A stretch of DNA of 64,000 bases from Bilabrum cf. latius (GCA_965178125.1 OZ237765.1:186001-250000); one strand, 5' to 3'. Shown: positions 889 to 64,000, numbered from the stretch's first letter. The notes: generated from the sequence alone by a model not told the origin. A program made the numbers and translations.

Positions 889-3800
889 TCACTGGCCGCC
901 ACCACGCCCAAGCCGCTGTTGCTGCGCCCCTTGCAGTGCGTCCGTCAGCTGTCGGATGGTGTCGAGCATCTAACGACGGGGCACTTGCGCGGCGCCTCCA
1001 CCTCCGGAACCAGTTGCCTGTCCAGACTATGACCCAGCCTCACTTCTGATCGAAGTCCCCGTCGGACCGGGGTGACCCCCTCGTCTCCTCCCAGGGGAAA
1101 TCCCCCCCCTCAACCCCGCGGGGGTGGACTCCGCCCGTCGCAGCACGGAGCGACCCGCCGCCAGCGCCGCGGCGTGGGATGGCTTTAGGCCCCCCCTTGG
1201 CGCCGATCCGCGTGCCAGCTCTTTTGCGAGGGGGGTGATCGCGTCCTCCTCCTCCTCCTCCTCCTCTTGCTCTGCCCCTGCCCCTGCCCTTCCAACTCCC
1301 AGCCCGCTGCGGTTCCTCATCGACCCCCGGCTCCGGCTCCGGGTCATGCCCCCCCTCCCGAGCGCCAGACGACTCACATCGTCTTCATCTTCATCTTCAT
1401 TCTCACCGTCGCTGCCCCCAAGGTACCGAACGAAGGCCCCACCCCCCGCCGACTTGAACCGGCGCAACCCCCTGTCCCTGTCCCTGCCAGTACCCTCTTT
1501 GCCTGCGGAACCGGCGACGCGACCTAAGGACCGGGCCCCCGGCGATGCCCCTGCGCTTAGGTCCCGCCCCGCTGCGCGGCGCCCCTCGCTGCGACCTCTT
1601 TGCGGAACCTCACCACGGAACGACCGGTCCCTGTCCCCGTACCCCCTTGCCCTATCAGTTCCCTGTCCCTGCTTATGTCCCTGCTTCCCACGACCCCTGC
1701 CCCGGCCCCGGCCTCGACCAAGCCCAGCCCCCGCAGCGGCGCGACCTCCGGCCCCTGGCCTCATGGCCCCTGCAGCCGCTGTGGATGATCTCGTGAGAGT
1801 GCCCCGCCGGCCATACCTGTAGAACTCAAGCGCGGGGGGCCCGCCCGGAGTGCGCCCGCCCCGTTGTTCCCTGGACCTCCCCAAATCCTGCTCGCCCCCC
1901 TCCCCCTCCCCTTCCCCCATGGACGTGTCATCATCCCCATCCAGCCCAAGCCCGAGATCATCACCCTCACCCACTGCACGGACACCATCGTCGCTGGGAC
2001 TCCCGCCGTACTCATCTTGATCTTCATGATGTGTACCGTCATACTAATCACCGTCATGCTCATGCCTGCGATGCTGCTCCTCGCCGTCGTCCTCGTCCTC
2101 GTCCTCCTCCAGAAGCGCCTCTCGGATGGCTGGAGGCGTGCGGCGACCGCGATTGCCCGCGCCACCGTGCAGTGCACCGCGCTCCCGTCCCAGCTCCGAA
2201 TGTGCCCTGCGCATGCCCATCCCCCCATGCCCCCCAATTTGTTCCCTGGATGCCGCCCTGGGTCCCAGCGGCGGTGCCCTGGCTTCCAGCTCCTCCAGAA
2301 TCCCCTCGGCGAGCCGCTTTACCGCCGGGCTGCCGTCCTTCTCTTGCAGCAGCCGCTGCACGATGGACCTGACCGAGTCCCCCCTGTCGCCTGCCTCCAT
2401 TGGCGCCATCTGCAGCGGGGCGGGGGCACTGGCACTGGCAGTGGCTCGGGGCTCCTCACCATCGCCCAGATCCGGGGTGAATGGACCGGCGGCGGAAGCG
2501 TCGACTGGCTGGGAGGCTTGATTTGATCCCTGTCTCCCGCTTGTTCCCTGGGACCCCCTCGCCAGCGCCCGCTCGGCCTGGTCCATGGCCGCCTTGGCCC
2601 TGTGCCACTCGGCCGCCTTGGCCCTGTGCCACTCGGCCGCCTTGGCCCTGTGCCACTCGGCCGCCTTGGCCCTGTGCCACTCGGCCGCCGCCTCGGCCGC
2701 GAGGTTGCGATCCGTTGTTCCCTGGTGATCCGTTGTTCCCCGGGACTGTGGTTGCTCGTTCTCTCGAGTGGGGCTGGGGGATGCGGACGACTGCAGCGCA
2801 CTGCGAGGCTTGGGGGGCCGGTACGGCTCCGGCTCTAGCTCTGGCTACGATTCCGACGAGGAAGCGGGAGAGGCCTCCATTGCGGAACCAAAGGCGCCGC
2901 TCATGCCACCAGTTCCGTGGGCGCCGGCCGCCGCGCGCAATTCTGCGCCCCGGGAGTCCAGGAGTTCACTCGTCACACCGTCTGCCGAGCTCGATTGGGA
3001 GGGCACCCGACCGCGCCACCGTTGCTGGCGCGATGGCTCCTGCTGCCATTCGGGGACGGTTTCAGTGTGACGACTGGATGGCGTGCCCCGATCCTCGTCC
3101 TCCTCCCCCCACTGCGCCTGCGCCTGCGCCCGCCTCTCTCCTGCTCCGGAAGGGGGGGCCGAAGACGGGGATGGGGTGCGCGATGCGGGGCCGTGTGAGT
3201 GGGCATGCCCTCCCCCCGCGGTCACGACCCCCAGTGCCCTAGCCGCCAGAATGGCTCTCTGCATCCTCTCCCTCGCCCCCGCCCGCTGGAGGTTCACTCC
3301 GTCGTCGGGCCCCCGCAGCCGCACAGCGAGCTCCTGTGCCTTGGCCAGTCTTTCTTGCTCCGAGTCAGGGAGCACGCGGCTCAGTCGTTGTTCCCTGTGC
3401 ATGCGGGCCGTGAGCAGACCCCTGCGGCCAGCTGCCTGGACCCCAGCCAGGGCAGTGGCAGTGGAGTGGGAAGCAGGCGGCGGGGGGCCCTGGGAAACGG
3501 AGCGATGCGGGGGAATGCGGCCGGGGTGCACTGCACTGCCGCTGCGGGGGCCGCCCTCGGACTGCGAGCGGTCGTGAAGGTGTGACGAGTGGGGCCCCCT
3601 GTGCATCCCCGGGGGCGGCATCGTTACAGCGCGGTGCACGGGGCCGGCGATAGCGGCGCCGCGCAATGCAGGTTCCGCCTCCGGTGGCGCATCATCGTCG
3701 TCTGCTGCTCCATATCGCTCCGTATCATTTCGACTCGGGGTCCTGCTGCGGGTCGTCATCTCGATACCAGTCGTGTCGGCTGCCGGTGAGCTTTGATCGT

Positions 3801-6800
3801 CGCGCCGTCCGGGAGTGTTGGTCTGTTCCCCGGAGCCGGGGCCGGGCGGAGCGAATGGCCTGCGGCTGCCACTGGCTCGCTGCATCAAGTGCATTGGATT
3901 GCGGTGCTCAAAGCCCTCGTCACCCTCCTCCTCGGCTGCCTGCACTCCGGAATTGTGACCAGGCTGACCCTGCTGCACTCCTGCATAGCCGGAGGCAGCC
4001 GAAGACCCTGTGTCACCAGGCTGCTGGGAGGGAGCTGGCGCAGCTGTCACTGAGGAGGACTCTGGCAACGGGTGCTGTCCCTGCGCCTGCCCCTGCCCCT
4101 GCGCCTGCCCCTGCCCCTGCCCCTGGCGCTGCCCCTGCCCCTGGATCGCAATCGCTCTCGCCTGCCCCTGCACGGGCAGCAGCGGGTTGCCAACCATTTC
4201 CATTCCGAGTCCCTGAGCCGCAGCCACGGCGGCCTCGATCGACAGCCGGCGCCGGGTGGCGCGCCCCGCCTCCTTTTGCTTCTCCTACTCTTCTCCTTGC
4301 GCGTCGCTCTCGGCGACACGCTTGGCATCAGGATCAGAGCCCCCTGCGGCTGCCGCAGCCGCTGCACCACCATGCAATGCACTCCTCTGTTCCCTGGAAG
4401 CCTCCTCTGCCCGCATCACCGCCGCTGCCGTGTCCTTGCCCACCTGCGCGGCCAGCTCGGCCTCCTTGCGCCGGAGAACAACAGAGGTCCGACGCTCCAC
4501 CAGGTGCAGCGTATTGCGGTGCAGATCGCTGCCCCGGCTGACGCCCTCTACCGCCGCAGCAGCGCCCCCCGCGGGTGTTGCAGAGTCGGCTGGCCCCAAC
4601 TCGGCTCGTGCGGCCCCAGCTGAAGCCAACCCCCCCTTGCCCGAGGCACTCCCCCCCTCCTCTCCCTGCACCGACGACCCCTCGATGATAGCACCCTCCA
4701 CGATCCTGTAGGTCTTGAGTCCTTCCACCGACTGCACCATCCTTCCCCTAGGGCCAGAGAAGTCCCCCCTCTGGATTGCCACCAGCGGCTGCAGCACGGA
4801 ATCGACCTCAGTGTCGTTCATACCCGCTAGCACGCCGATGCCCATCTGCTGCATCTGGCGGAGGAACTGCGGCTCGACCAGGTTCCTCTTGAGCTTGAGT
4901 CCGAATCTCTCCAGCCTCTGAAGGCACTTTTTCCGGAGCCTGGCCCCGAACGTCAGGTGCTCCCCGATGACGTAGTTGATGTCCTTCCTGTCTATGATGT
5001 ACAGCTCGACGTCAGTGACCGCCTGCACAGTAAGCAGCCTCACGGAAGAGAAGAGGCAGTCTATCCCGCCCACGAATGAGCCCTCCCCCAGTGCCACGAT
5101 CTTCTCCATGCCCTGATACAGGTTCACCACGCCACGGGTCAGGAAAGCCATAGAGGTCGCGTAGGTTGCCTCCATGAACACGTACTCGCCCTTGTTGATG
5201 ATCTGCTTCCGCAGTCGCTCCAGGACTGACGCCTGCACGGCCTTGGGCTCGGCTCGGAGCAAGGGCACCTGCAGCAGCAGGGTCTGATTTGTCAGCAGCA
5301 CGACCTCTTCCCTCAGCGCCGGACTGAGCATCTCGAGCATCTCCTTTGTTCTCTGAGAAGCCCTGCCCTCGTCATACCTCGCACTCCGGTCGAAGTGTTC
5401 CAGGATCCGAGCTTTGAGAGCCCGTGGCAGGCGAGCATCCCGCATGAAATACTCGAGCTGCTGCTGCCTGCGGGTCAGGTCCGTCTGCGACCTGTCGATC
5501 GAGTACAGTACCTGGGTCATGGAGGCAACCAGGAAGCCAGACCACACGAGACCTGCGAGCATCACGAAGATGGCGAGAGCCACCTCGCCCTAGGAGAGGG
5601 GCACCACGTCGCCGTAGCCGACCGATGCCATGGTGGCCACCGCCCAGTCTGCGATGCAATCGGAGGCAGAAATCAGCAAGAAACGAGAGTCATGTGTGAC
5701 GACAAAAACACACCGGCAGGCGGAGCGAACACCGGGACAATGACAGCTACGGAGTACGGCAGCGAGGAGCATGAGCAACCAGTGCAACGGAGCACTTGCT
5801 CAGCCTGGGGCGAGCACGCTGCGCTCCTCTCACACAAGGCCCAGAGATACCGCACCAGCGGATCTCCCTCGGATATGTTGTTGTCCACCTCCGACATCCA
5901 GTTTGGATTGCCCCCATCAAACTCGAGCTGTCCCACGAACGCGAACAGGCCAGCTGTCCAGTGCAGGAACAGGATGGCCCAAAAAAAAGTCCCCGCGATA
6001 CGCCCGATCGCCGGGTGAGCGTCCGTTGCCGTTCCTATGTTGGACAGGTGCTTGCCCAGCCGAGCGACCCTCACGATCCGCAGCAGCCGCAGAAGCCGCA
6101 GAAGCCGGATCGCACGGGGCAGCTTTGCGAGCCTGCCCAGGTCGTTGATGTTGCTCGTCTGGTCCTGCGTGTCACCAAGGATCCAGTCGATTGGGATGCT
6201 CGCCACCAGATCGATGACGAACCACCCCGTGAAATAGTTCCAAGCGATCGATCCCGGCTGCACCACGATCTGATCCTTCTCCTCGTCCACGTAAGCCGAG
6301 CAAAAGTTCACGCAAATGTCGATCACGAACACGGCCCAGATCCCGATCTCAATCCCATCCCACACGGCAGTCTGCTCCACCTGCAGCAGGATCAGATATG
6401 GCGTGACGATTGCCACGTACAAAAGCGGAACCATGAGGAAGGGCTCCCAGAACTGCCTGAAGGGGTGCCACGGGAGCAAGATCCACCAGTTGAGCTTCCC
6501 CCGGAGGCGAGTGCGGAGCAGGTGCTCCTCGGCGTCCTCGATTGCCATGATACCGTCCACAGGATCCAGTCCCCAGTCCGCCACGTCATCCTTAAAACCC
6601 CTCAGGGTTGCGATCACCTTGACGAGGCGCTGCACCTTGCGCCATTTGCTGCCCGGCTTGAGCGTCCGCTAGGTGCGCCACTGCCCGTTGGGGCAGAATA
6701 CCTGACCCCTGTGCTGCTCGATGGCTTGCACCCGCTGCTTCAGAGGCGCGCTCGCTCGCACCATGCCCGAGGCTCGCGGGTGGATTCCGCCGTCGCGGTC

Positions 6801-7070
6801 GTCCATCGTGCTCGCATTCAAGTTGTCGTCGCGGCCCACTGGAGTAGAAGCGGGGCTCTGGCCGCTGTCTCCTGCGAGAAATGCGGCTCGCTGCTCTGGT
6901 GATATGTTGCCACTCACGCTAGCTACGGTTGGCATTGAGGTGCTGGTGAGTCGCTGCTGGCTGCTGGGAGGCGAACGGCTTCTGACGTCGATATCTCGTG
7001 CGGTCGCAGCCGCTTTGCTCTCATGTGACGGCGATGAAGCGCCGGCTGCCCCGGGTGAGCTCTGACTCAT
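889..7070 (-). CDS. Voltage-gated K+ channel with cyclic-nucleotide-binding domain (EAG/HCN/CNG-like) and long low-complexity C-tail, about 1998 aa
   Basis: ATG 7070, intron 5833..5649 (GT..AG), stop TGA 891-889. S4 motif RLAKLPRAIRLLRLLRLLRIVRVAR, pore YWAVATMASVGYGD, C-linker and CNBD (GEYVF…LGEGSFVG…VQAVTDVELYII). Requires read-through of 7 in-frame TAG (6669, 5590, 4285, 2845, 2044, 1027, 970), one of them between the pore and S6. Confidence 0.9.
2587..2688 (-). repeat. 24-bp coding tandem repeat x4 encoding (AAEWHRAK)n
   Basis: Unit ggccgccttggccctgtgccactc is repeated exactly four times within the channel C-tail. Confidence 0.95.
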
Positions 7071-7477
7071 GCTGAGTCTAAGTAGGTTCCGGTGCAAGTA
7101 CCCTCCAGTGCAGCGCTCTTTGCTCGGTAAACCTCAGCGAGACCTTTGGTAACCAGTGAGCGGGTCTGCTGTATCCGACACGGTTGGAATGGATGATTTC
7201 CAATGAAAGGCTTCCCAAGCTGATATTAGTCCAATACCTAGCGTCGTAGATCGGTGGAATAACCTTCGAGTCAATCGGCAGTGAGGATAATCAAGTTCAA
7301 GAAAACGGAAAGGACGTCGTGTCGCAACCTGTTGCCTGGTCGCAACCAGTTTGCAATATAGCACGTTACCATTAATCAAAGTAAGAATAAATAGCCAGCA
7401 TACAAACATCACGCCCGTACGCGCCTGGATTCGACGCTACAACCGCAGTATCTGTTCAATCTATTAAAATCTGTAGA

Positions 7478-10400
7478 ATGGAGCTTCGGAGAAGCTAGAA
7501 CCTTCCACGAAGACGTAGGTTTGGCAGAAATATGTGGCTGCGATGGACTGCTGCTGTTGGCATCATTGTGTCCTGCTCTATCAGTTCAAGTGAGTGTACG
7601 ATTCAACTTCCGAACAACAGTCTGAATATTTGTATCCGTCGCTATATGCTTGTGTACTCGCTGATGCGTAGCATCGCGTTCCAGTGAGTTTGGCAGCTTC
7701 TCAACCCCACACCGCAGGCATGGCGGCTTGCTAGAATGGCGGAACTCGTATCGAAGCTGGCAACGGCCTCGAATCTCGTTGCAAATGCCCCACGGGATTT
7801 GCTGGGCGGAGCTGCGAGGTTCGATTGGGATCTATGTCGGCGGCTCACTCGGTCGAGCGCTCTGATGCTAGCCCACCGCTCGAAGCGATGCTCTCCGGCG
7901 GGCCCATCGTAGACCTGAGCTTTGGTGCATTTCCCCAGGCCTTGCCCCGTTTTCGATCGAAGCGATCCAGCGGGTTTCAGCCGATCGAACCGGACCCGCT
8001 GCCGCAACCTGCCATACCTCCTGCCCCGGCTGCTGCCGAGCCAGTAGGCCAGGACAGTCCTGCATCGGAAAGCGAGGTAGGTAGTGAGCTGGTGGACAGG
8101 AAGTCCACCGGAATCCAGCAGCAAGTGCTGTCCCCAAGAGGCACGGGGGCGGAGGCGGTGGCTGTGGGCGAGCAGGAGAGGCAAGGGCAGGAGAGCCTGG
8201 GACAGGACTAGGATAGCATCGAGCAGCAGCAGGACCATGACCAGGACCAGGAGCAGGAGTAGGACGCCATCGCTGGCGTGTCATCCAACCTTGTTTCCGT
8301 TGGATCCGACCCAGCTAACACTGATGCAGTGGGAAGCAGTCTAGAGGCTGGCCTTGCGGAGCCCAGTGGCGGCGTGGGTGCGGCAGCTGGGGAGGGACAG
8401 CAGCCTGGCGACCAGGGTGCATCGCACGATGGTGACTGCATGGGGCGGGCAGAGCCTCCGACCGGGTGCCCTGGCAGTCAATCGTGGGACCCGGCAGGGT
8501 GCCAGTGCACGTGCCCGCTGGCCTAGATGGAGAGCGGAGGAGCGGCGGATGCTGCCGATGGAGTCGTTGGTGGATCAGGATCAGGACCTGCCTGCCTGCA
8601 CGGCGGTACCCTAGACCCCATCAACTGTGAGTGCCAGTGTCCACCAGGGCGGACTGGCCCTCGGTGTGACGAGTGTCCGCGGCAGGACTGCGCCCACGGC
8701 GGTACCTGGGACTCGGAGTAGTGCCGCTGCAGCTGCCCTGTTCCCTGGAGGTGGGAGGACCACTGCGCCACGTGCCCCGTCCGCCGCTGCCAGAACGGGG
8801 GCACTTTTGATTCCGAGTCGTGTAGGTGCGCGTGTTCCGGTTTGTGGGAGGGTGAGGACTGCGGCACTTGCCAGCCCCTCGAGGCCCTGGCCCTCAGGGG
8901 GGGGCTTGCGGGTGCAGCGCAATGCGGCGCAAAGGGGTTCGACCGCCTGCTGTGCGCGTGCAGGGAACAGTGTCCCCCGCGAGACTGCCAGCACGGGGGG
9001 GTGCAGGACCCGGAGTCGTGCGAGTGCGTGTGCAACGCCGGGCAGCGGGGCCACTGGGGGCACGCGGCTGGTGCGGTGAGCACGGTGAAGGCCGGCGCGG
9101 ACATGAACGTACACATCGGAGGCGTAGCAGTGCCAGAAAAGGACCAGAGTGTGCTCTCCGATCAGTCATCCACAGGGAACAACGCGGCCGGGAGCCTGCT
9201 GCTGCAGCAGGCGCCGTCCGAAGCTAGCATCCGTGGCGCTGGCGCTGGTGCTGGTGCTGGTGGTGCCAGTGCAGGCGCGTCCGATTCTCAGCTTGCGCTG
9301 CTGCTGGCCTCCCTGGGTGCAGGCCCAGGGAACAAGGGGTCCGAGGGCCGTGGGCACGTCCTGCTGTAGTCTGCTTCTCGTGACCCCAGCGTGGGGTCCA
9401 GGGGGATCGCCCTCCCCGAGAGGGTCATGCCATCGGTGGCGGTGTCCATCGGCGCTGCTCCTCAGGGAACACGCACAGGGAACAAGGATGGGCTAGTGCG
9501 GACGTTCTGGTCAGGAGACCGCTGCGAGCTGTGTGAGGCGCCCTCGGACGTCGTGCCAGCTGGTGCAGCCGCTCTGAAGGTGCTGGGGGCTGCAGGGAAC
9601 AGTGAGCTTGCAACCAGCTCGGGCGCCCACGGGGATGCCCTGTCCTCTCCTTCGTAGCTGTTGCTCTCGCTGTGGGGCGCCCGCGGCGGATCATCCGTTG
9701 GATCGGGCCGCGTCATGGGCCAGGGGCAGGCATTCGTGGCCCCCCGCAGCTGCCCCCCCTTTCACGTGTTTGACCACCAGGCGTGCGGCTGCAGGCCTGC
9801 ATGCCCAACGGACATGTGCAAGAATGGCGGTGAGCCGGTCATGCTGGTCGGCAAGGGGGCAACGGGGGCATCGCAGGGTGCCTTTGGTGCCGCAGTCGCT
9901 GGTGCCGGCGCTTCTTCTTCTTCTTTCTCAGGGAACAAGCAGCAGCCGCAGTGCGGGTGCAGGTGCCCTGTTCCCTGGTCCGGGTCCACGTGCGAGGTGC
10001 GCGGAAGCGGCTCCAACCCAGCCTCCTCGGCCAGGTCCTGCCTCGCCGTCAAGCGGCTGCGGCCGGAAGCCCCCAGCGGCCTCTACTGGGTGAATCCCTC
10101 CGGTGTGGACCCCTTGCGGAACGCCATCGAGGTGCACTGCGACATGGAGGGAGACGGCGGCGGGTGGCTCAGGCTGGCCAATGTGGGCCCAGCCCTGGCC
10201 GCACGCATGCTGGACGGCAACACGTACACCCAGGGTACGCTGGCCCGCCGGGGAACAGAGTGGGTGTTGCCGTGCACCCGGCTGGCGGGCATGGACGGGG
10301 CATCGGCCGCACTGTCGGTGCGGGATGCCGAGGTTGCAACCACCCCGGAGGATGCCCAGCCGGCCTCCCCCCGCCGATTCGTGCTGCGGGTCACCATGGG

Positions 10401-12554
10401 AGAGGCTGTTGACTACTTTAGGCCCCTAGGGTGGCGGCGCGAGGGAAACGGAACCGAGCTGTTGGACCAGACGCACTCGTCACACCCAACTCTGTGTGAG
10501 GTGCTGCGCAGCCACGGTCTTCACGAGTGGGCTGGGCGGTTCCGCCGAGACATGGTGGGCGGGCACCTGACCAAGCAGGATGCGGCCGCGCTGGGGCATC
10601 AGGGAACAGCGGAATAGCGAGCAAGCGATGCAGATGAATCGACGGGCGAGGACGGCCAATCGCAAGACGAGTAGGAGAAGGAGGAGGAGGAGGAGAAGGG
10701 TACCAGCGACACCAGTGAGAGTGAGAATGAGAGTGAGAGCGAGGGCGAGCAAGGGGGGGGTGACGAGGAGGAGGAAGGCAGCGCCGACGCAACCATGGCC
10801 ACCACCGCTGCCACAAGCGGCCAGTCCAGTCAAGAGGGGGGGGCAGAGGCTGCTGAGATGGAAGCAACCGACGGCGGGCCGTCACGAGAGGAAGACCAGA
10901 ACAGTGGAGAGTAGCAAGCCGAAGGTGCCGGGACCGAGGCCCGCTTCGCGTCCCGTAGGTCCGTACTCGATTCCCAGCAGTACTAGCAGCAGCAGCAGCA
11001 GCAGTACTAGCAGCAAGCGCCCACTATGGGTGTGGACGGGCAAGCCACCCAGGCGGACAACATCGCGTGGGGCTAGCCATAGACCCAGGCGTACCAGCAG
11101 CAGCTGCAGGCCTTGTAGCTTCAGTAGATGCAGCAGCAGTAGTTGTAGCAGCAGCAACAGGGGCAGCAGTTCCCGATCCAGACCGGGTGGTATGCGGGCG
11201 GTGACATGCGGTTCGCGGGGGCAGGAGAAGGGGCGGGGGCAGGGGCAGCGCCTGGCGCGGCATCGCCGACTGACCCTACAGAAGCACAGGCGCAGGCACA
11301 GGCGCAGGCGTACATGCAGATGCAGATGCAGCAGCAGCTGGCCATGATGGCGGCCTCATAGCCCGGACAACAACAGCAGCAGATGCAGCAGCAGCAGGCT
11401 GCCGATCAGGCCAGGTTCATGCAGGCACCGCAGGGCAATGCACCCGGCATAGCGCCCGGCATGCTGCCCCCCATCGCTGGCATGGTCGCTATCCCCCAGC
11501 AAGCCCAAAGGCAGCAGCAGCAGCAGCAGCAGCAGTTGCCTGCTATCCAGGACATGCAGCGCTTCAGGGAGGTCAGCCCACCCATCGGGGCACCGCCCGC
11601 GCCTGCCGTACCAGTGCCCCCACACATGGGTCAAGCGCAGAGACATGCGCAGGGGCAGGGGCAGGGGCAGGGGCAGGGTAGGGCTGTGCAGGCGCTGCTG
11701 CAGTCATCATCGTCGTCTACTTCCTCGTCGTCTGTGGACGCCGCCGAGGCCGCGGGTCACTCGTCACACGGTCGCCGGCTCAAGTCGATCAAGTGGTCAG
11801 GTCTGGTGGGCTCAGGCGGTGTTCAGGGAACAATGCAACCGGGGGCGGCTGGGCCCGTGTCCACCCAATCGCAAGCAGCGACCGCCTCCGTGCGGAGAAG
11901 TGGCCGCGACATGCGGCTGATGCGCGCCGAGGACGGTGTGGCAAGCGAACATCTCGCCGAAGGTTCGTCGGGATTCGAATCAGATACCGAGTCGGAGTCG
12001 GAATCGAAGTTCGGGCCCGGCGGCAGCGCGGGCTCCACCATCCGCCCGCGCACCATCTCTGCGGCCAAGGCTGCCCTGGGCGTCAGGGTGCCAGAGGAGG
12101 GCAAGAAGGACACCAACAGCACTCGTCACACCGATGACAGCAAGAAGCAGGCGAGCGCGGGGCAGCTGCCCCGGTTCGCCAGCGCGAGGGGTCCATCCCT
12201 GGGCCCGATCGTGCCGCTCTCGTGGCCGGCTTTAGAAAGCGATGGCAGCGAGCAGGACCAGGAGCAGGAGTGGGAGCAGGAGCAGGAGCATCCATCATAG
12301 GGAGGGGGTGATTCAGGGGAGGAGGACGAGTCAGAGCAGCTGCTCGGCGCCACGATCGCCATTGACACCCCGGACTCGCCCATGCCGGGGCTAGCACCAA
12401 GCAGCGCAAGCGCAAGCACCAGCACCAGCGGAGGACAGGGGGGGCGATCGGTGGGCGCCGCTCCGCTAGCGCTTGCCCCGCCCAATGTGCCGATGGACAC
12501 ACCCGCAGAGGCGAGAGCGGCAGAATCGGCCGCCCAGGCCTCCATCCTGGCCCT

Positions 12555-12587
<33 letters not shown>

Positions 12588-13074
12588 TCACCAGGTGGGT
12601 GAAACAGGTGGTGCAGCCGAGGCAGGCGGGCATGAGGCGGGCGCGGCGCTGCTGCTGCAGTCCTCGGCAGACTCTCCCAATCGCCTGGAGGATCCCAATA
12701 GTGCGTGGACAGCGCCTGCCTACGTCGACACGGTCCTGAATCCGCAACTGTCGGGCGTGCTGGGCGGGTCTAGGAAGAACTGGCCCCTGGGTGTGGATGG
12801 GAGGATGTACCTGCCCTTCTGGGGAGGGAACAGGGGGGGCTGCTGCCACCAGAAAAAGGGCGGAAGCATTGCCAGGTAGGCCCAGGATGGGGAGGGCGGT
12901 AGTGTGCAGGCTGACGAAGGCAAGTGGGGCCTGCAGTTTGCCGTTGACGTGATCGAGGTCGACGCCGAGCTGTACGAGAGCGGCGAGGACTTCGCGTTCG
13001 GCGAGCATCTGCACGGGCAGCAGGCTCATCGCGAGCAAGAATCGAATGAAAACGACCCTATGAACAGGGTTTGA
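7478..13074 (+). CDS. Large secreted or membrane-anchored protein with EGF-like Cys repeats, a fibrinogen-related-like domain and poly-Q regions
   Basis: ATG 7478, N-terminal hydrophobic stretch, intron 7590..7717 (GTGAGT..GCAG), stop TGA 13072-13074. EGF repeats C*NGGT…CKCPTGFAGRSCE, CLHGGT, CAHGGT, CQNGGT, CQHGG, CKNGG. SCLAVKRLRPEAPSGLYWVNP…EVHCDMEGDGGGW is the typical start of a FReD-like domain. 22 in-frame TAG and no in-frame TAA or TGA. Confidence 0.85.
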
Positions 13075-13216
13075 TATAATTGTATTCCATTTCGGTCCCG
13101 CCTTAATTGCGAATTGTTGACGAATCGTAGTGATCGGATTAAGCCCGGTTGCAACCTCCAGAAAGCAAAGTCCCGGCTCGACTCGGTCGCACCGCATCGC
13201 AGCACACTTACGGGCG

Positions 13217-21112: not shown

Positions 21113-21143
<31 letters not shown>

Positions 21144-25237: not shown

Positions 25238-25438
25238 CGATGTGTGGGCTGTAAAACTTTGATAGATTCTGTGATCATTTATTCCAAGGAAACCCGCGGA
25301 TCTCTTTGCACTGAGCCGGTCATCCCGACGCCGTCGGCTTCGAGTTGATTGCTTCATCTTCATCATGACCGAAAGTTGGTTGCAACCGCCACGGCCAGCC
25401 TCCAGTTCAGCTACTTTCCGCCAATAGGAGCAGCCAAG

Positions 25439-52893: not shown

Positions 52894-55089
52894 ATGAAGG
52901 CACCTGACGGTTCGTTCGTCACAGCCAATATTCAACAATGATCTAGATATGCTACTGAATGTCAAACAGAGCCAAAATCACGAGTGAAAAGCGACGTACA
53001 ACGCGACAAATGGCGTCATTTGCGTCTTCACTTGTCGCAGACGTCCAACGGCGCGCCAAGTAGTCCTGGCTTGGGAACTCACAGGTGTACGATTACTTGC
53101 ACCATGCTGAGGAAGCTAGTATCCCTATTCTGTCGTCGCCGCCAAGTCTACCTGCTTGTAAGTTGATTAGTTGTATGTGTACGCCCGTTACTTTAGCCTG
53201 TTGTACTTTGCACCGACCATCTTGCCTCATCAGTGACTTGGTTGAAAACTGCATTTTTTCGCAGCTGGAACACTCTGCGTGTATCAGCGACTCACAAAGT
53301 ATAGGACTGATGGTCACACATGGAAGACAAAAAGCAGAGCCGGCAGCCGGGGAAGCTCAACACAGAGCCTCGTGGAGAGCCATATGCAGCTATAGGTTCC
53401 AACCGGGCGTGGGCGAGCACGCTTGTAGTGCTACTACGGCCAGGGTGCCGGCGATAATCCACTGCATAGGCGAATCTATTGGGTTGCAAAAGAACCTGCT
53501 GGCAGAATGCCTCCAATCGCGCGCTCCGCGGCACCAGCTCTGGAGGCGGCGATTCAGGCCAGAGACCGAGCTTAGGTCAAGTCTGGGGCAGCGGCAGACA
53601 ATGGCTCCAAAGGAGCAAAGCCTTCCAAATCCTCTACCGGTGGAGACGGTGGATTGCTTTTGAATTCAGTGCTCCGCAGGCACGCCCTAGTTCTCGTGCA
53701 CTACCTGCACCCTGACGTGGCCGCCGGTAAACTGTCCGGCCTCGAGGCGAGCACTACCGGCGGAGCAGTTGCTCGGGCTAGCGAACCGGCGCCCTCCGCA
53801 CCCCCACAAGTGTCCGTGTCTACATCTTCATCAATGGCAGTGCAGTCTGGCGATGCCAGCTCATAGGCACAGGCATAGGCATAGGGATAGGGATAGGGAT
53901 ATGGATAGCATGCCGGGAGCAGCAGCTCGATCGTGCCGCCCAGGCTGCCGCCTTCGAGCTTTAAATCCTCCTCCATCACGCCTGGGGCGGAGAGTGTCGG
54001 TCGTTCCCAACTTCAAGTCAGCTAGCTTTTTCCGTCCGGCCACCAGCGGTACGGCGGTCCGGAGCCGAATATGCCCGGAAGCCACAGCTTCGGAGTCCAT
54101 GCGGCCTCCTTGCCTGCCGTGCACGGTATCACCCACATCTCTCAGCCGAGAGGCACGGGCTTGGGTGTGACGAGTGGGATGGGCAGACCCCGCAGCATGA
54201 GCATCGGGAGCGTGCCATCGGAGCACTCGTCACACCCAGGTAGACTGTCGCCGTCTGGGTCGGACTGGGACGGACAGGACGTCGACACCCTGACCGGCGC
54301 CGCGCATTCCTCGTAGGTTCCGCATGACGGCCTCCAGGGGGTGTCACCCATGCAGCCTGCAGGGTCTGCCTTGGTTCCGGCGAATGCTAGCGAAGGTTCT
54401 CTGGGGTTCTCTCGCGACCACCCCTACCTGTCAGATTCGGACCGTCGCCAGCCCATGCTCGCACAGCCATCAGTCGGGCACGTAGGGCGAGGAGGAGACA
54501 GGGCGCAGCCTAGCATGGGGACTGGACTGGGGATGGGGCCATTGCAGGAGCCTGGGTTGCGGTCGAGCGTTGACTCCGGCATCAGCAATCATGATGGGAT
54601 GGGCATGGGCATCAGCAATGGCATGGGCATGGGCATGGGCATGGGCATGGGAATGGGCATGGGAATGGGCATGAGGACTGCAGGCAGCCACCGGAGCAGC
54701 GAAATGACAACGGGGCCCGGCATAGCGACGGCCGTTCCAGCTGGTGTGACGAGTGGATCGGGGCCTCCGCTGGCTGTAGACACGAGGTAGGCAAGTGGTG
54801 ACGAGAGCAAGCTCGGCGTGTCCCCGGCGAGCACTCCCGGGGTCGATTCTCGCCGAAGGAGATCCAGGAAGCGAAACAGACATGAGGCAACACCAGTACC
54901 AGTGCAAGTGCCAGGAAGTCGCGCCGTGGATCGCGCGCTCGTCACACCTTTCCCAACGCAAAGGAGACGGAGCACTGGGCAGGTGCCTTCTAGTACGCTG
55001 GTAGGGGTTCGCGATGGGTCGGCGATGGGGCTGCCCCCGCAGCTGCCGCAAGCATCCAGCAGCGCTGGGGAAACGGCGATCGACCCAAG

Positions 55090-55121
<32 letters not shown>

Positions 55122-57652
55122 CGTCACACTACCTCCGCACCATGGTACGCCATATGATCGCCTTGGCCCGCAGCAGCCCCGGCATGCAGGGCGAGATGGC
55201 GGTGAACGACTCGGAATCGGGCCTGTCCCTGCTGCACGTGGCCGTCATCTGCGGCGACCACGACGTGCTTTAGGCCCTGCTGCAGTTCGGGGTGTCCCCC
55301 AACGATGTGACGAGTGAGGGACAGCTCCCGCTGGGGCTGGCCGCCGCCCGTGGAAACGGGCCCATGTGCGCTGCTCTTCTGCGAGCGGGTGCAGACCCTG
55401 GCGCGCACTCACGGCGGGGCCTCACCGCCGAAGTCGAGGCCCAGAGGGGGGGCTTCAGGGAACTAGCAGAGGCGCTACTGGTGTGCACGGAGAGGCACGC
55501 ATCCAGGGAACAAGCGATGGGAGGGCTTGGAACAGGCGGAGGCGGCGGAGGCGCGGGCGAAGGCGATTGCGAGGCCAGCAGCCTGGCAGTCTTGCAGGAG
55601 CTGCGACGCGTGTACGGCGAGTGGAGGGCCGCAGTGGATGCTGTGGAGCAGACTGGGTCCCCAGCAGATCACGGGGACGATGCAATTCCAGGGAACAGTG
55701 GCACCACAGAGGCTCCGAGTCGGTAGGGGCAGGCACCCATGGAGGATGTGGACTCGGCTTTGCCTGCCCTGCCAGCACCTGCACTCCCACTTGGCGCCAG
55801 CGTAGGCAGTGGCACGGATGTGGTGGGGACAATAAACGGTGTCATGACTCGCAGAAAGAGTAGCGGCAGCAGCAGCAGCAGCAGCGGCCAAGGGGTGGGA
55901 AAAATCGATGGAAAGTCAGTGGGCAGTGAGCACAAGTCGAGCCCGTCCGTTAGAATCGAACCCGGTACGTCGCCGTTGGCAAACGGAACCGCGCTTGCAG
56001 CGCCTGACAGAGACTCTGATGGTGGCAGCAGGAGCAGGATGGGAATGCCAGACCCAATGGCTGCTGCAGAGATACGTGAGCAGGACAGGCGGCTGCTCCT
56101 GCACGCGCTGCAGACGCTACCCACAGAGGACAAGGAAGCGATGAGGCTCGCAGCGGCCCAGGGAACAATGCATTCCCAGGGAGCAAGTGCTAGGCAGCTC
56201 GATGGATCGGTGCAGGGTTCAATCGGATTGGATAGCGTGGGCGCGCTGGGCGGGGCTGACGAAGCAGTGGTACTGGGCGCAGCAGTGGGCGCAGGAGTGG
56301 GGGAGCAACTTCTTGGAGCCCAAGCAGACGGGGCCTCATCCATTATTTCCGACACGGGCAGCCGGCGGTCATCTGCGTCTCGGCGCCCCGTGCGCGGGGT
56401 GCACATGTCCGTTGAGCCGCCATCCCCCGCGGCACTGGCGGCCGCCGCTCGTGCCCAAGGCGGCTCTATGTCCGATGTCGAGGGCGCGCGTTCCGTGTCT
56501 GCAAGCAGCACCGCGGGCAGCGGGATCTTCGGCGGGCTCGGGGTCGGTATCGAGGACATTGACGTGGTGTCTGTGCTCAGCGAATCGCTGGATGCGGTTC
56601 AGCAGCAGCACCAGGGAACAACAAGCGGTGGCGCCGGTGAGGCCTCTTCAGGTGCGCTCTCGGCTGCACTGGCCGGGATGCGCGGCCGCGGTCCTGGGCC
56701 GGAGAGGGGGGACTCTCGAGGAGCAGAGAGCGACGGATCCTCCCAGGGAACAACTGGGATCGAGAAGGAGGCCCGCAGGATCCAGAGCAACGTGAGGGCC
56801 TGGCTGCGCAGGAAGTCCTTCCTCAGCGTCAGGCGGGCGGCACGCACCATGCAGCGGTTCGTGCGGCGGGCCAGGACGCAGCGCGGCAGGCAGGGGGTCA
56901 TGCTCGGGATCGACATAAGATCGGAGAGTGGCCAAACCGGTGGCGACTCCTCCCCTCTCCCAAGAGGCAGGGTTGACGTCCTGGGAAGCATCGCTGAAGT
57001 CGGCGCGGGAGCGGCTCAGGAGAACGTGGCCGGTCCTCGGGATAGAAACGCGGCCAGGTCGAGCACATCATCCTCTTCCTCGTCAACTCCTTCGAATTCG
57101 AATGCGGGGCGTCAGTCTGCCGGGAGTGGGTCGGCTTCCCCGCCGGACCGGCAGGCCGCCAGCGCTGCGACCATGCTGCAGGCTCGGATTAGGGGCATCA
57201 TCGCCCGGAGGGAGCTGCAGGAGCTGAGGAGGCAGGCTGCAGCTGCCATGGTGATCCAGCGAAACATGAAGAAATGGGCTGTGACCGAGCAGGACGGATC
57301 AGCGGGGAGCCAGAGCAGCGCGGAAGACGAGGAGAGGTAGGGAGACGATGACAGCAGCGATGAGGACGGTAATCTACCGCCTGGCGGTGGCATGCGGGGT
57401 GCTGCTAGAGGAAGGGTTGTCGGGAATTTGAGGAGGTCCCTATCCGGGTCGTCATTGTCGATTTCGATGCAGGGAGCAGGCGATGTGCGGGGCCGCGGCA
57501 GGGACAGAGACAGTGACGGGGCTGGCACAGAGTCACCCCCAATGCGAGAGGCAGGGTCCGAGATATCCTCCCTTCTGGGCACTGGCTCGTCACCACACCC
57601 TGAAACTGGTGAGTCCGCTGCGAAAAGGATGCGGGTGGAGAAAGGATCATGA
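52894..57652 (+). CDS. CAMTA-like transcription factor (CG-1 DNA-binding domain, ankyrin repeats, IQ motifs)
   Basis: Probable exons 52894-52909 (tentative), 53041-53157, 53265-57652. CG-1 domain AK*SWL…PASGTLCVY…YRTDGHTWKTK…ESHMQL*V…L*CYY…LHRRIYW…LVLVHYL. Ankyrins GLSLLHVAV…DVL*ALL and GQLPLGLAA. IQ motifs IQSNVRAWLRRK and LQARIRGIIARR. 15 in-frame TAG; stop TGA. Confidence 0.88.
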
Positions 57653-57934: not shown

Positions 57935-60900
57935 TTACTGAAACAAGGTGAACCGCTGCACGCAAGAGGTCATCTGGACCGTCCTCGCCGCCCTGCGCAG
58001 AAGCGCTTCCGTCTCACCCTCTCCGACCGAAGCATCGAAGAGACCCACGAGGCATAGACCAGGACCAGCGTGCCCGCTGCTGCTGCCGGCCCAGAAGCCC
58101 CCGTCTGGCCCTGCCGTGCCGCTCCCCGCCCCGCTCGACGGCTTTCCAGCACCATCACTCCCCACCAGCACCTTGCCCGCCTTTCCGTCCCCTGCCCCGG
58201 CATCCGCATCCTCTGCCCCGAATCCTGAGGGCCTGGCCTCGCTCTTCCACAGCCCTGCCACCACGCCGTCCGAGCATCGCTGGGCCACGAACTCTCGTTG
58301 CACTCGAGACCCGGCCCCGCCCATGAGCGTGCTGACGATGTGCTGGTACCTTCGGAAGAGCCTCTTGCGCGGCTTGTACCCAAACATACCGGGAGGCAGC
58401 CTGCTGCATACCACCTGGGGCGGCGAGGCTCCCAAGTACGCCACCACTAGATGCGCAAGTCCCGGCGCCTGGAACTGCGCCGGGTCGGGACCCCCAGATC
58501 GCACCGAACCGGTCATGGGCCGGAGAGAGGCTGCTTGCCTCAGCTGCGACAGCACGCTACCACCGACCTTTGGCATGCTTGGAATCGAGTCGCCGTCGTT
58601 GGTGATCAGCACAAGGTACACGTCGTCCATGTCGGTGTCCTGCGTTTCGCGGGGCAGGGGCTTTCCCCTTTGCACGTCGTACATGTCCGCAAGCACGCCG
58701 GGCGTCAGCCGAGCGCCCCCACCGAGCCACTGCTGGCCCAGCTTCAGCGCGGCGCCCTGGTTCCGCTCGTGTTCCCCGACAGGATCGGCACGCTTCCCAG
58801 GGGCACCGTCACCGGCGCCCGACTCGCCTGACGATGGCGACGGGCTTCGCGCACGGTCCGTGGCTAGGGACGGACCCGCGAGTGTACCGGGCCTCTAGTA
58901 AATACTGGCGGCGTTCTGATGTTCCCTGCCGTCCGCGAAAGAAGAAGAAGAGGAAGACGAAGCAGCAGCAGCTGACGCTGCCAGGGAGCCTCTCCCGTTG
59001 GCTCCCATGTAAGATGACCCACCGGCCCCAGCGCCTACCCACCTGCTCTAGTTCTCCAAAAGATCTGCAGCCGCCACTGCCCGCTCAGCCCCCTGTATGG
59101 TCTGGTCAGCCCACCTGAGGTGAGCGTCCAGCTGCCTCTCGTTGGCCACTGTGGTGAGTGGGTCATAGCTGGGCCTCGGGCCAGACCTCAGTGTTCCTTC
59201 CTCCAGTCCTGTCCTGGCCCATGCAGCAGGGAGAGAGGGGCGGGGGAGCTCCGGGGGATGAGCACCTTCGTGCAATGCGCTTTGACCCGGGGGGTTCGCC
59301 GGATCCATGGAAGGTTCCCCCTCCCCTCTCGCCCTCTTGCGCACCAGCCGCCGGTCGGATTTGGCCCTGTCGTGCGCTTTCCTCGTCACACCCTGCAGCA
59401 TCCGCCGGAGGCGACGGGCGGAGGAGGCACCCGGCACTGTCGACAGGAATGCCTGCTCCCCGGAGCGGAACCGGCGCCGCGCTTCGTCCGCCTCGGATGC
59501 CACTTCCCTTGTCTCGTCGGTACCCGAGGCTGCACCCGCTCCAGCCCCGGGGCCGGGGCCGCCGCCATCATGACTGACGCCTGCATCACCGTGCGATGCA
59601 TCCAATCCAACCGCCGGGTTGCTCGCGATGGCACGCAGCACGTCCTGTCCCGCACCACCGTGCGATGCATCCATGCCACCGTCCCTGTCCCTGTCCCTGT
59701 CCCTGGGGCTGGAATGCGCGGACCGCGACGACCCCCGGGACCTGGAAGTGAATCTACCCGCTCCTTGGATCTCTTGTTCCCCAGAGCCTTGTTCCTCGGC
59801 GGTCAGGCCCTCTAAGGGCAGCTGGGGAGGAGCGACGAATGAGCCGTCCGTGCGGCGCTGCTGCGGCGGAACCGACGGCGCCGCGCGATGGCGGACGGTG
59901 GGCGCGCTGTGGGCCCCAACTGAGGAAGACGTGTCGCCGCCCCTTCGCTCGTCGCTGTTCCATGAATCCCCCTCCCGCCCACCAACCCCGCCCGCAGCAT
60001 CCCGGGCGGCCAGGGCAGCAGACTCCGCCGCGAGCGCGACCGCGTCCGTACTCAGCTCCTCTTGCCTGTGTTCCCTGCGCTCCTGGATGCCGGTTGCAAC
60101 CTCCTCGGCGGGAGCCCTCACATCCGCCTCCATCTGGGTGGCCAAAGTGAGGGCCCTCCGCGACGATTGGGAGGTCCCGTATGCGGGGGCGCGCGATTGG
60201 CCCCCTTCTCTTGCAGCACTGGCATCGGCTGCTGCTCCCACGGCTGCCTGAGTTCCGGTCTGCGGTGGTTCCTTCCGGTCCGAATGCGCGGCGCCGCTCG
60301 CTTGCGGAACGTATTCCTCGATTTCTGCCACTGTTTCGGAGAGCGCAGGCGCGACCCTCGACGGTCCCCTCGTGATGGAGCCCAGGTAGCTCACGTGGGC
60401 GTAGAGGTACCCAGTGGAGGAGATGGAGGGGAGGCAGATGGGCAGGATGGCGGGGGCCAGCCGCATCTGGGGGTTGCTGTGGATTTGGGCTCCGAGTAGG
60501 ACGAGGTCCCGCGGCCTCAGCTGCAGGTGGGGCCTGCTCGGCTGCACCAGAGCAGCGATTTCGGCGCCCGCAAACACGCAGGCGTAGTGGGCATGCGGCC
60601 TGGCGGATTCAAGCACCTTGCGCATCGTGTTGCGGTGCCTGAGCTCCAGTGGCAAAACCGGAACTGCGTCGAAGAGCAGCAGCGGCGCTCGGTTGCAGAA
60701 GCGGAGCAGGGTTCGGAAGACCCCTTCGTTGGCCCGAACAAGCTTTCTGAGGTCTTGTCGCGGGGCCTCGACCGTTCGCAGCGTGGCTCCGAATACAAGG
60801 GCGTCGTGCAGCGCGCCTAACTGCGCCCTGAGGTGTTCCTCACTCTCCCCAGTGCGCGAGGCGGCGAGCATGCGGAGCCTGCCTCGGCGCTCCACGACCA

Positions 60901-61461
60901 CCATTAGATCTCCCATGCTGATCGTGCTGCGAGCGAGCAACTTGCGAATGAGAGTACATTTGTAGTGTTATAGGTTATTGGGCAGGGTTGGCAGCTGTCA
61001 CAGGTAATAGACCTCTGGATCGCTGGGGACATCGTGTAAATACCGATCAACAGCAGCTACTACCAAGGGCAAGAGCTCACCGGAGAGGATCACCAGAGTC
61101 ATCAAATCGATCGATTAGCATCGAAATGAGCGCGCATTGATTGCTGGCCTCGCGCTCTGTGCCGTACCTGCGGTACGTGCCCAAATCCACACAATCGAAA
61201 AGTCCAGTAGATATGTGCAAAATGCGTAATCCAAGCAAACCACTAATAGATGTAAACATTATATAGCTGCATACCTCCAGAACACCGGCCTCCCGCCGGC
61301 ATCAATCATAAATATGTGTTTATTTCGTTTCTTCCAAACTGCGCCAAAGTCAATTGAGTACGTACTCGCGAACAGTGCACGGGTACAAGTGGTAAGTCAT
61401 CATAAGCGAGCATAGGTTGCTTACCAGAAAGCCTAGGCGGGCCATCGGCGGCCAGTTCCAT
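57935..61461 (-). CDS. MON1: Vacuolar fusion protein Mon1 (Rab7 GEF subunit)
   Basis: Exons 61461-61425, 61338-61275, 61167-61081, 60926-57935, all GT-AG and phase-consistent. WKKRNKHIFMIDAGGRPVFWRYGTE, SRTGESEEHLRAQL, DLRKL, PICLP…GYLYAHVSYL. TAG 59048 and 58895; stop TAA. Confidence 0.88.
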
Positions 61462-61970: not shown

Positions 61971-64000
61971 TCACATCTGTCCATGCCCGTACATGGCGTT
62001 GTCCTGCACCTGCATCGACTGCACCGGCACGTGTCCCCCAGGGCCGTGCATGCCAAGCCCCCCCGCCCCTCCACCGTAGGCTCCGCCCGGCATCGAGCCG
62101 TTCCCGCCTCCACCGTAGTACTGATCGCCAGCCGCACCCGGCATTCCCATCCCGTCCACCGGCCCCGCGCTCGCCATGGGCACACTCCCGGCCTGAGGGA
62201 AAGACGACTGGTGCGTGTGGGGGTTGGCCATGTCTCCGTTCACGTCCTGCAACAAAAGGGTCAATGAAATGGCGCGACATGTACAGGGATGCAAAGCGGC
62301 ACCAACGCGCGAGACATGACAGACAGACAGGCGGGTGCACGGCACTAGGGTGCGCCTCCTATCGGCGTACTGCAGCACAGTGCAGTACGCACGATCTACG
62401 CGCAGCAGAGGGGAGCTGGCCAGGCGGCCCTCCGGCAGGGGGAGGTGGGGGGAGGCGGGGCATCCGTGGGGCCTCACTCGTCACACGCAACACCACCCAG
62501 CTGCATTGGCCACGTCACTGAGCGGGCGCCACCTGGGATGCCCTGACGGCCTGTGCCGAGCTGTCTTGCTCCGTACCGTACACCGCGTCCGATGAAGGCG
62601 TGTTACCGTACTCCGCTTCACCGGCCTGGGCGAACTCCCCTCCTGCCCCTGCCGTGGCCATGTCATTGCCATCATCGTAAAGATCACCCGTTCCACTCAC
62701 CGGAGGCGCGGCCGAATACCCGTTGGTGTCGACGTTGAAGTCCTGGTCCAGCGCTGCATCGATGTCCTTGCCAGAGGCAGGGGCACTGGGCTGTCCATCC
62801 ATGTCAGAAGGGACCTGCGAGATTCAAAAAAGGGAGAGGGGGCAGGAGGAAGAGGAAGAAGGGTATGGAATGCAGCAATAGCAATAGCAGCAGCAGCAGC
62901 AATAGCATTAGCCATGCAAGGCAAGGTAAGGCAAGCACACGCACGAGAGAAGGCGTCTCAGCGAGAGGCAACACAATGCAGTTGTTGAAGCTCACCACGC
63001 TCGCCTAGGGATCGGGTCCGCTGGTACCACCACCACCACCACCTCCCCCGCAGCACCCCTTGTTGCTCTCGTACTCGAGGTACTTCTCGTTGTCGGCGCG
63101 CTGCAGATAGTAGGGACCCCACAGCTCGTTGGGGAACCGCTTGTACCCCAGCACCATGGAGGGCCACCCGCACACGCACACGGCGAGGCCGATCATGTAC
63201 CACGATGCAACCATCCAATACACCCCGTTCATGAGTTCGCCGCAGAAGCCGTCCAGCAGGGGCTGCACCACCTCGTCTGCCAGCTTCTGGCAGCCCAAAT
63301 CCTCGGGAAGGTCGTCGTTCAAAAGCGGCAGCACCGCTGCCGTCATGTTGTCGAAGGTACCCCGGAGAAGCCTCGCTGCGGCGGGGCCGATGGTGTCCGT
63401 GTCGTTGAGGAAATCGTCGATGAATTCGTCCATGGTCTCGTTGATCTGGCTGGAGAAGGACCTGTACACGGAGGCGATGGCATGAGCCCCCGAGCCGTCA
63501 GTGTCCACGTCACCGCACGCGCCGAAGATGCCGGCTACCATGGCAGCTGGCCTGAACCGCACCGTAGTGTCACCCTGCTCCACCTCGCACAGGCCAAAGT
63601 CGTCGGCGGTGTCGGTGACCACGGTGCCGGAGAAAACCGACTCGCACAGCTGGGGCGCCGATCCAGCGGCGTACTATACGGCGACCGCGGGCATGGCACG
63701 GCACACGTCACTGCCCACCATGACCTGGGCGAAGAAAATACCAGCAAAGAAGAGGGATGGCACCATCAGCACGCACAGACACACCTGGTTGCAAGCCGTG
63801 CAGCACGCGTGCCACGAACCGCCGCACATCACCAGTGCAGGGATCAAAGCCATCACCGCGGCGAGCAGGGGGAAGGCATAGAGCGCAAGCCACAGACCCT
63901 CATACCCCGTGCTTACGGGGACACTGCCCCCTGAGGCCGTCTCGATGCTGTCCTCAGCCGCCTCCCGGATGGTGGCCTCGATGCAAGCGTTCGTCAGGCA
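61971..64000 (-). CDS. 5'-truncated multipass membrane protein, prominin/tweety-like C-terminus
   Basis: Frame open from 64000. TM segments and CQKL…FCGELMNGVYW…LGYKRF near the end. TAG 63674 and 63005. Probable introns 62995..62815 and 62532..62247; stop TGA 61973-61971. Confidence 0.6.

Follow-up and report, generated by a model that had tools for sequence, protein, structure and literature searches.

The stretch of DNA analysed here, hereafter the window, comprises 64,000 nucleotides of Bilabrum cf. latius (GCA_965178125.1 OZ237765.1:186001-250000). It holds closely spaced genes of eukaryotic type with few short GT..AG introns, in DNA whose G+C content ranges from 53 to 67% over 4-kb windows, and is best explained as nuclear DNA of a GC-rich, intron-poor protist. 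Clear Pfam families, that of a Methyltransf_16 protein and those collected in Table 1, emerge from its frames once TAG is taken for a residue, and it is this codon that concerns us. Nuclear, intron-bearing genes of the window use UAG as a sense codon, UAA and UGA remain terminators, and the residue inserted at UAG is most likely glutamine. The whole arrangement, with UAG as Gln and UAA and UGA as the sole terminators, corresponds to the pattern of Iotanema spirale (translation table 15), and we give it a probability of roughly three in four. It had first been proposed in an earlier note made from the sequence of the window.

UAG inside genes and in transcripts

The earlier note had counted some 65-70 in-frame TAG codons over 15 genes, which agrees well with the present count of 68 in 16 stop-to-stop frames plus five in small exons, namely those of the ribosomal protein uL23 (25577), the AP2-like gene (13334), the second pyrophosphatase copy (48809 and 48896) and the CAMTA-like gene (~53060). 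After trimming of probable leaders, 64 TAG remain among 14,549 codons, beside 640 CAG and 146 CAA. The longest frames under the standard code reach 964, 946 and 811 codons, and with TAG read through they extend to 1,826, 1,636 and 1,468. As trinucleotides, TAA, TAG and TGA occur 404, 778 and 1,568 times, TAA and TGA together taking 1,972 of 128,000 positions. By arithmetic from these frequencies, a frame of 1,826 codons free of TAA and TGA has a chance of ~6e-13, and in-frame TAG therefore exceeds what chance would provide.

Six of these codons lie within Pfam envelopes: GH20 (residues 187-428) extends over aa292, Ion_trans_2 (52-98) over aa70, CG-1 (8-83) over aa50 and aa61, Ank (659-689) over aa676 and Ribosomal_L23 (25-64) over aa49. 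Homologues in the PDB match both flanks of the TAG in the GH20 protein, in uL23m and in the channel. The HexB alignment of the GH20 protein continues through TAG 34332, and those of HCN and SthK through aa70 of the channel; TAG 25577 of uL23 is covered by the Pfam match as well as by PDB uL23m alignments. In the channel, the TAG at 5590-5592 on the minus strand stands between the GYGD filter and S6. In-frame UAG within conserved domains of real genes, a property of the code type in which UAG is Gln and UAA and UGA are stops, is accordingly found in the window. All the coordinates singled out in the earlier note (5590, 34332, 25577, 13334, 53393, 53426, 55271 and 7732) carry TAG in the frame named for them. 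One attribution had to be loosened: TAG 13334, placed there in an AP2 domain, sits in an exon without a Pfam match, and it is the second exon only that matches Pfam AP2, with E=1e-4 and under the curated cut-off.

Expression data came from public archives, where seven runs share at least half of the sampled words of 25301-35300, none of them recorded as RNA. Four runs were aligned to 25301-45300: the DNA run X2, the runs X5 and X6 of one study, and X7 of another. X5, X6 and X7 consist of assembled contigs, not raw reads, and X5 may include DNA. They are read as transcript-derived because GT..AG joints at 25626>25719 (uL23) and 30756>30869 (HSP90) occur in all three and are absent from the DNA run, because their depth tracks genes (in X5, ~1,200 over HSP90 vs 20-100 for its neighbours), and because contig ends coincide with gene ends, as seen for the GH20 gene (33535-35747 in X5, 33547-35716 in X6, 33558-34519 in X7). 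All ten TAG sites within the aligned sample (25577, 28104, 29226, 34332, 36387, 37104, 37380, 37407, 44612 and 45185) are covered by these transcript-like contigs, with zero other letters and no joint. Three of the ten (25577, 28104 and 29226) stand on contigs that are themselves spliced. For uL23 TAG 25577 these are contigs from X5, X6 and X7 alike, and for the BD-FAE gene an X5 contig (27531-29241) that skips 27226-27530 (plus-strand CT..AC). An X5 contig over the membrane protein (36107-37493) and an X7 contig over the AAA-like gene (43172-45300) are equally free of other letters. These ten codons are unedited and unspliced; therefore editing, splicing-out and assembly error are excluded at those ten. 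CAG or splicing in transcripts had been named in the earlier note as what would speak against a sense UAG, and the contigs hold TAG, unchanged and unspliced, at ten sites out of ten.

Some further observations belong to these runs. The minus-strand intron at 27226-27530, removed in X5 and X6, is downstream of the BD-FAE stop at 27718 and therefore falls in a 3' untranslated region or in a neighbouring transcript. Two studies supplied the transcript-like contigs that match the window letter for letter, and they label their organism differently from one another and from the DNA run; other cultures may have contained it as a cobiont or contaminant, or it may have been deposited under several names. 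Over 43236-44395, in the 5' part of the AAA-like gene, the DNA run X2 yields a second contig set with ~25 single-letter differences, none of them at a TAG, which may represent a divergent allele or a paralogue.

The remaining features of the window are given in Table 1. The EGF-like protein contains a weak fibrinogen/collagen-C-like stretch, and the coding part of the HSP90 gene, which has the top transcript depth, reaches a G+C content at third codon positions (GC3) of 0.96 and contains no TAG. The stretch 37974-41308 was identified as a high-copy repeat because of its raised depth in X2, 15-40 times that of single-copy DNA (545-1,595 vs ~38), and because variant letters and joints are numerous in it; its frames matched no protein family. 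Two of its pieces, 38513-38620 and 38824-38923, recur at 46181-46288 and 46338-46437 with 96% identity.

Table 1. Genes of the window with their in-frame TAG codons and terminators (TAG positions of the K+ channel give the highest base, minus strand)
Feature	Position	Strand	In-frame TAG	Terminator	Remarks
Cyclic-nucleotide-binding K+ channel	889..7133	-	6671, 5592, 4287, 2847, 2046, 1029, 972	TGA	Pfam Ion_trans, Ion_trans_2, cNMP_binding; frames 5673-7133 and 889-5799 overlap and are linked across an intron or a frame change
Long secreted-type protein, EGF-like Cys repeats and poly-Q tracts	7594..13074	+	22, from 7669 to 12877; 9 within the Q-rich tract 10984-11146	TGA	
AP2-like exons	13121..13659	+	13334 (first exon)		
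Low-complexity protein, no known family	13587..16742	+	16608; also 13764, 13767 in probable leader	TGA	
Coiled-coil protein, no known family	16986..19757	-	19679, 19652, 19454, 19148, 18611	TGA	
GH47 alpha-mannosidase	19856..23125	+	20228 (N-terminal tail)	TGA	Pfam Glyco_hydro_47, E=4e-154
Mitochondrial-type ribosomal protein uL23	25433..25938	+	25577	TGA	Two exons; GT..AG intron 25627-25718
BD-FAE / alpha-beta hydrolase	27718..30447	-	29226, 28104	TGA	Pfam
Cytosolic HSP90	30620..33364	+		TGA	Exons ~30620-30756, 30869-30924, 31367-33364
GH20 beta-hexosaminidase, ricin-B lectin fusion	33459..35561	+	34332 (catalytic domain)	TGA	Pfam
Membrane / low-complexity protein	36099..37739	+	36387, 37104, 37380, 37407	TGA	
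B-lectin repeat protein	41244..42917	-	none	TAA (41244-41246)	Pfam; highly expressed
AAA-type ATPase-like protein	43700..45997	+	44612, 45185	TGA	
EF-hand and inorganic pyrophosphatase fusion, copy 1	46667-48493	+		TGA	Multi-exon, tandem with copy 2; in both copies the EF-hand region is N-terminal and the pyrophosphatase of the soluble type
EF-hand and inorganic pyrophosphatase fusion, copy 2	48650-50504	+	48809, 48896	TGA	Multi-exon; TAG in this copy only
CAMTA-like protein (CG-1, ankyrin, IQ-like)	52959..57652	+	1 in upstream exon (~53060); 15 in main exon (53393 to 57338)	TGA	
MON1 longin-domain protein	57935..60967	-	59050, 58897	TAA (57935-57937)	Pfam Fuz_longin_1, Fuz_longin_2
Membrane protein, truncated by window end	62804..64000	-	63676, 63007		

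Which residue UAG specifies

The residue is indicated in the first place by the company that TAG keeps. CAG or CAA occurs at +-2 from TAG at 17 of the 64 sites, as compared with 0.087 for codons that do not encode Gln (Fisher 2.5e-5); the same measure is 0.308 for CAG itself and 0.192 for CAA. At least four Gln within five codons are found around 7 of 64 TAG and 127 of 786 Gln codons, and around 0 of 418 Lys, 6 of 904 Glu and 11 of 1,129 Leu codons. Moreover, (A/G)Q and (D/E)Q dipeptide repeats are frequent elsewhere among the window's genes, and TAG, where it occurs in such repeats, takes the place of Gln; among internal repeats of the EGF-like protein two of five copies have Gln at the TAG column. 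A classifier based on regional composition puts Gln first at the scales of the gene, of 300 codons and of 100 codons, and Tyr at 50 codons, while a context-likelihood classifier puts Gln first by 10 nats, or Met when the EGF-like gene is left out. The three arguments for Gln put forward in the earlier note were all recovered as sequence features: TGC TAG AAT GGC GGA ACT around 7732 (CqNGGT from 7729, q being TAG) against CQNGGT at 8788 of the same EGF-like protein, the poly-CAG stretch with interspersed TAG at 10975-11160, and the (A/G)-TAG run of the CAMTA-like protein at 53864-53908. They come, however, from two genes, the EGF-like and the CAMTA-like.

A close relative came to light when residues 1-1,200 of the CAMTA-like protein were used as query in an exhaustive HMMER search. 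Three short database proteins, P0125, P0127 and P0126, are 93%, 79% and 95% identical to the query; one contig of 3,093 bases carries all three, and they are pieces of one gene cut by a standard-code caller. P0125 has Gln at the window's TAG aa676 (55271), in a block whose 43 preceding and 42 following residues are identical; the simplest reading would be a synonymous difference between TAG and CAR. The same protein stops immediately before the window's TAG aa827, and the sequence is taken up again by P0127 from the Met that follows. Since both P0127 and P0275, a variant on another contig, break within the frame, in-frame stops are present in the CAMTA gene of at least two related strains or species. 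These comparisons show that a related organism shares the trait.

Alignment of TAG with conserved columns of homologues, proposed in the earlier note as a check, led to a tie. Over the 12 TAG sites with homologues, substitution-matrix scores place Lys at 0.0 and Gln at -0.09 nats, followed by Arg (-3.5), Met (-3.8), Glu (-4.1) and Leu (-4.7). Opposite the TAG, the homologues of uL23m show T, E, Q, E and Q, and those of the channel M, M and D. The PDB offered no usable relative for CG-1, the AP2 exon, the AAA protein or the coiled-coil protein. Word-index protein searches gave no match for the CG-1 region, and none for the EGF-like protein against shorter proteins, a search swamped by low-complexity words; self-BLAST of the window proteins for paralogue columns returned low-complexity noise only.

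Several results weigh against glutamine, and the tie with Lys is the first of them. P0171, a CG-1 homologue with 49% identity for which the protein atlas gave CG-1 clusters only, has Lys at both TAG aa50 and TAG aa61, HexB has Lys at the GH20 site, and copy 1 of the pyrophosphatase has CTT (Leu) opposite TAG 48809 and AAG (Lys) opposite TAG 48896. In the relative, Leu stands at the window's TAG aa1365, where the surrounding sequence is variable and has an indel, and P0127 and P0275 both end opposite the window's TTG (Leu) codon aa995. The Gln context is confined to the EGF-like and CAMTA-like genes and the gene at 36099, and without the first two the signal at +-2 falls to 3 of 27 and is not significant. 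Neither classifier is reliable by its own controls: that of regional composition names just 5-10 of 27 rare sense codons correctly, and that of context likelihood 6 of 27, with CAA ranked 19th. To this must be added that the transcript status of X5, X6 and X7 rests on contigs whose RNA label is a tool's guess.

From these results one may ask whether UAG is instead lysine, or ambiguous between Gln, Lys and Leu, an outcome that would be an unprecedented nuclear assignment outside ciliates and metamonads, possibly in a deep stramenopile. The column tie and the Leu seen in three of the five closest comparisons speak for this broad alternative, whose probability is low. The stricter version, in which a CUA tRNA derived from tRNA-Lys makes UAG lysine throughout, is slightly less probable still, and we know of no nuclear code with such an assignment. 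Besides the level column scores and the Lys residues in P0171, HexB and the first pyrophosphatase copy, it can call on several TAGs that lie in charged stretches such as EEqEKQKE. Against it, Lys codons never enter the Q-rich tracts where TAG is found (0/418 vs 7/64, Fisher 5e-7), and Lys fits poorly with the spread of TAG over the genes, HSP90 having 69 Lys and no TAG, and the EGF-like protein 28 Lys and 22 TAG. Moreover, in the fully conserved block around aa676 the relative has Gln and not Lys. A small column sample rich in Lys is, besides, unsurprising under Gln, because in Iotanema, where UAG=Gln is established, Lys and Glu come next after Gln at UAG, and Gln is reported to dominate only ~44% of those conserved columns where the codon is an ordinary one for Gln (PMC5304391). 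Glutamine is the only residue that fits both the columns and the context, and we hold it with good confidence to be the one that UAG specifies. Lysine is left far behind with a slim chance, leucine with a slimmer one, and a small remainder goes to other residues or to ambiguity.

Gene ends and the remaining alternatives

The 19 frame ends comprise 17 TGA and two TAA, those of the B-lectin and MON1 genes. The earlier statement that no gene ends in TAG fits all 19, with a reservation for the truncated membrane protein at 62804-64000 (minus strand), where the 66-codon tail past TAG 63007 is rich in Leu, Phe and Pro and, as a point against the proposed code, looks non-coding, with a GC3 of 0.65 vs 0.79 in the gene. 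This tail could be an intron, or its TAG could terminate translation. Of 13 TAG-bearing frames, 12 have a coding-like tail past their last TAG, the frame of this membrane protein being the thirteenth. GC3 is 0.56-0.87 after the last TAG and 0.47-0.58 after the terminal stop, with one exception of 0.68 in the latter range.

It could also be that UAA and UAG both encode Gln, as in table 6, with UAA scarce through GC richness. TAA is indeed the rarest stop trinucleotide of the window, at about half the count of TAG, and six long frames have it as their upstream boundary. However, had TAA been used like TAG, one would expect the genes to hold ~15 TAA in frame (64 x 146/640), and none is needed for any domain architecture. 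No TAA lies between two coding-like stretches of a genuine coding frame. Two stretches came into question, one preceding the AAA gene (GC3 0.54, vs 0.70 in the gene) and one following the B-lectin gene (0.51 vs 0.74), and in the B-lectin gene GC3 drops from 0.74 before the terminal TAA to 0.50-0.51 after it. No in-frame UAA serving as Gln was thus found, two genes end in TAA, and a joint reassignment is very unlikely.

A dual UAG, read as sense within genes and as a stop close to some 3' ends, has about the same small probability. Context-dependent codes of this kind exist in Condylostoma and Blastocrithidia, and the non-coding-looking tail past 63007 would agree with one. All other frames, however, keep a gene-like GC3 past their last TAG, the part of the CAMTA-like protein past its last TAG is conserved in the relative, which ends at the same C-terminus, and the 63007 tail could equally be an intron.

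Leucine, the meaning of UAG in the rhizarian exLh, is less probable again. The relative's Leu at aa1365, its stop at the window's TTG aa995, a codon one step from TAG, and the CTT of pyrophosphatase copy 1 opposite 48809 are what speak for it. Both cases from the relative, however, lie in variable stretches, and TTG is one step from TAG whatever the meaning of the latter. In exLh, 82 of 86 hyperconserved UAG columns are reported to be Leu (PMC5304391), whereas none of the 7 conserved-domain TAG sites of the window (uL23m, channel, GH20, CG-1 and ankyrin) aligns to Leu. Leu is, moreover, 4.7 nats behind in the column scores and rare in Q-rich tracts, and the hydrophobicity around TAG (0.245) resembles that around Gln (0.239) and not that around Leu (0.283; TAG vs Leu p=0.024), a difference that becomes null without the EGF-like and CAMTA-like genes.

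That the TAGs are artefacts of assembly, pseudogenes, unannotated introns, RNA editing or low-level read-through found nothing in its favour and has a negligible chance, given that the same TAGs recur in the DNA run and in three transcript-like runs (three studies) with no other letter and no joint, that they are spread over 16 genes with up to 22 per gene and within catalytic and DNA-binding domains, and that the related organism's frame breaks at the same site.

Lineage, decoding and known codes

The stramenopile-like character suggested in the earlier note has weak support from HSP90. Among its best 120 matches, all 20 named proteins are of stramenopiles (oomycetes, placidids, a bicosoecid, Chrysoparadoxa and Fibrocapsa), but identities are 62-69% and no outgroup was included, so that the affinity may serve as a lead and not as a placement. 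An aphelid identity was rejected because the HSP90 matches are not opisthokont and because TAA is a stop in the window, whereas both TAG and TAA are described as Gln in Amoeboaphelidium protococcarum (PMC6299283). Origin from a ciliate or a fornicate was likewise rejected, on G+C content and HSP90 matches. P0004, a metagenome HSP90 fragment, is 91% identical to the HSP90 of the window; the lineage is therefore present in environmental data. A metagenome scan with P0004 recovered five unrelated HSP90 loci, and the relative's HSP90 contig was not among them.

As to mechanism, a code that reads UAG and yet stops at UAA needs a tRNA with anticodon CUA, as argued in the Iotanema report (PMC5304391). 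Such a tRNA, one change away from tRNA-Gln(CUG), would decode UAG and could not pair with UAA, which would be left as a stop, and an eRF1 with weakened recognition of UAG would be expected to accompany it. No tRNA gene and no Rfam match was found within the 64-kb window, and its gene set is without eRF1. With 64 TAG vs 640 CAG and 146 CAA, UAG would be a rare Gln codon and probably one that is read slowly. Neither the HSP90 nor the B-lectin gene, the two whose transcripts are covered most deeply, contains it, as fits a codon that is rare and poorly read.

The nearest known system is that of Iotanema spirale, a member of the Fornicata reported to use UAG as Gln and UAA and UGA as stops (PMC5304391). 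In common with the window, UAG alone is reassigned, UAA terminates and UAG is a minority codon, and in both the UAG columns are polar, with Q, E and K leading (PMC5304391). The two differ in gene ends, mostly UAA in Iotanema (104/119; PMC5304391) and mostly TGA in the window (17/19), and in the basis for Gln, which in Iotanema is described as 28 hyperconserved sites with a likelihood test (PMC5304391) and here consists of ~12 sites with homologues and a tie between Lys and Gln. The window is, in addition, GC-rich, and its HSP90 matches are stramenopile-like and not metamonad. The earlier note had cited Iotanema as the reported case of UAG=Gln, rightly but incompletely, since reassignment of UAG, and not UAA, to Gln is also described for Protocruzia tuzeti and two phyllopharyngean ciliate lineages (PMC11687900). 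These ciliates have what is most likely the same code variant, with several independent origins; unlike them, the window combines 53-67% G+C with long contigs and ordinary introns, and no ciliate occurs among its named HSP90 matches.

In exLh, UAG is reported as Leu with UAA and UGA as stops (PMC5304391), and the window resembles it in that UAG is decoupled from UAA and is rare in highly expressed genes. Codes with UAR=Gln, listed for hexamitin diplomonads, many ciliates and some ulvophytes (PMC5304391), most likely share with the window the use of UAG as Gln, probably through a tRNA-Gln(CUA), but in them UAA is sense as well. UAG and UAA are nearly always reassigned jointly, and few nuclear lineages are known to have split them, namely Iotanema, exLh, Scotinosphaera and a few ciliates (PMC5304391; PMC11687900).

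A search of full-text literature, with most subscription journals and supplements outside its scope, yielded no report of a UAG-only code in a stramenopile or a similar GC-rich protist. Outside eukaryotes, crAss-like and Lak phages reportedly use code 15 in bacteria, with TAG as Gln, the other two stops kept and a phage-borne suppressor tRNA, whereas the window is part of a eukaryotic nuclear genome with spliceosomal introns. UAG as glutamine in the window is probably a further case of a known rare code type, with an independent origin.

In practical terms, gene callers set to the standard code truncate proteins at every TAG, and annotation and phylogenomics of this lineage are wrong until the code is set. 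The relative's CAMTA gene is filed as three database proteins, and similar fragmentation is likely in public protein sets for every TAG-bearing gene of the lineage. As a further independent case with public DNA and transcript data, this organism would provide a data point on how changes in eRF1 and a CUA tRNA separate UAG from UAA.

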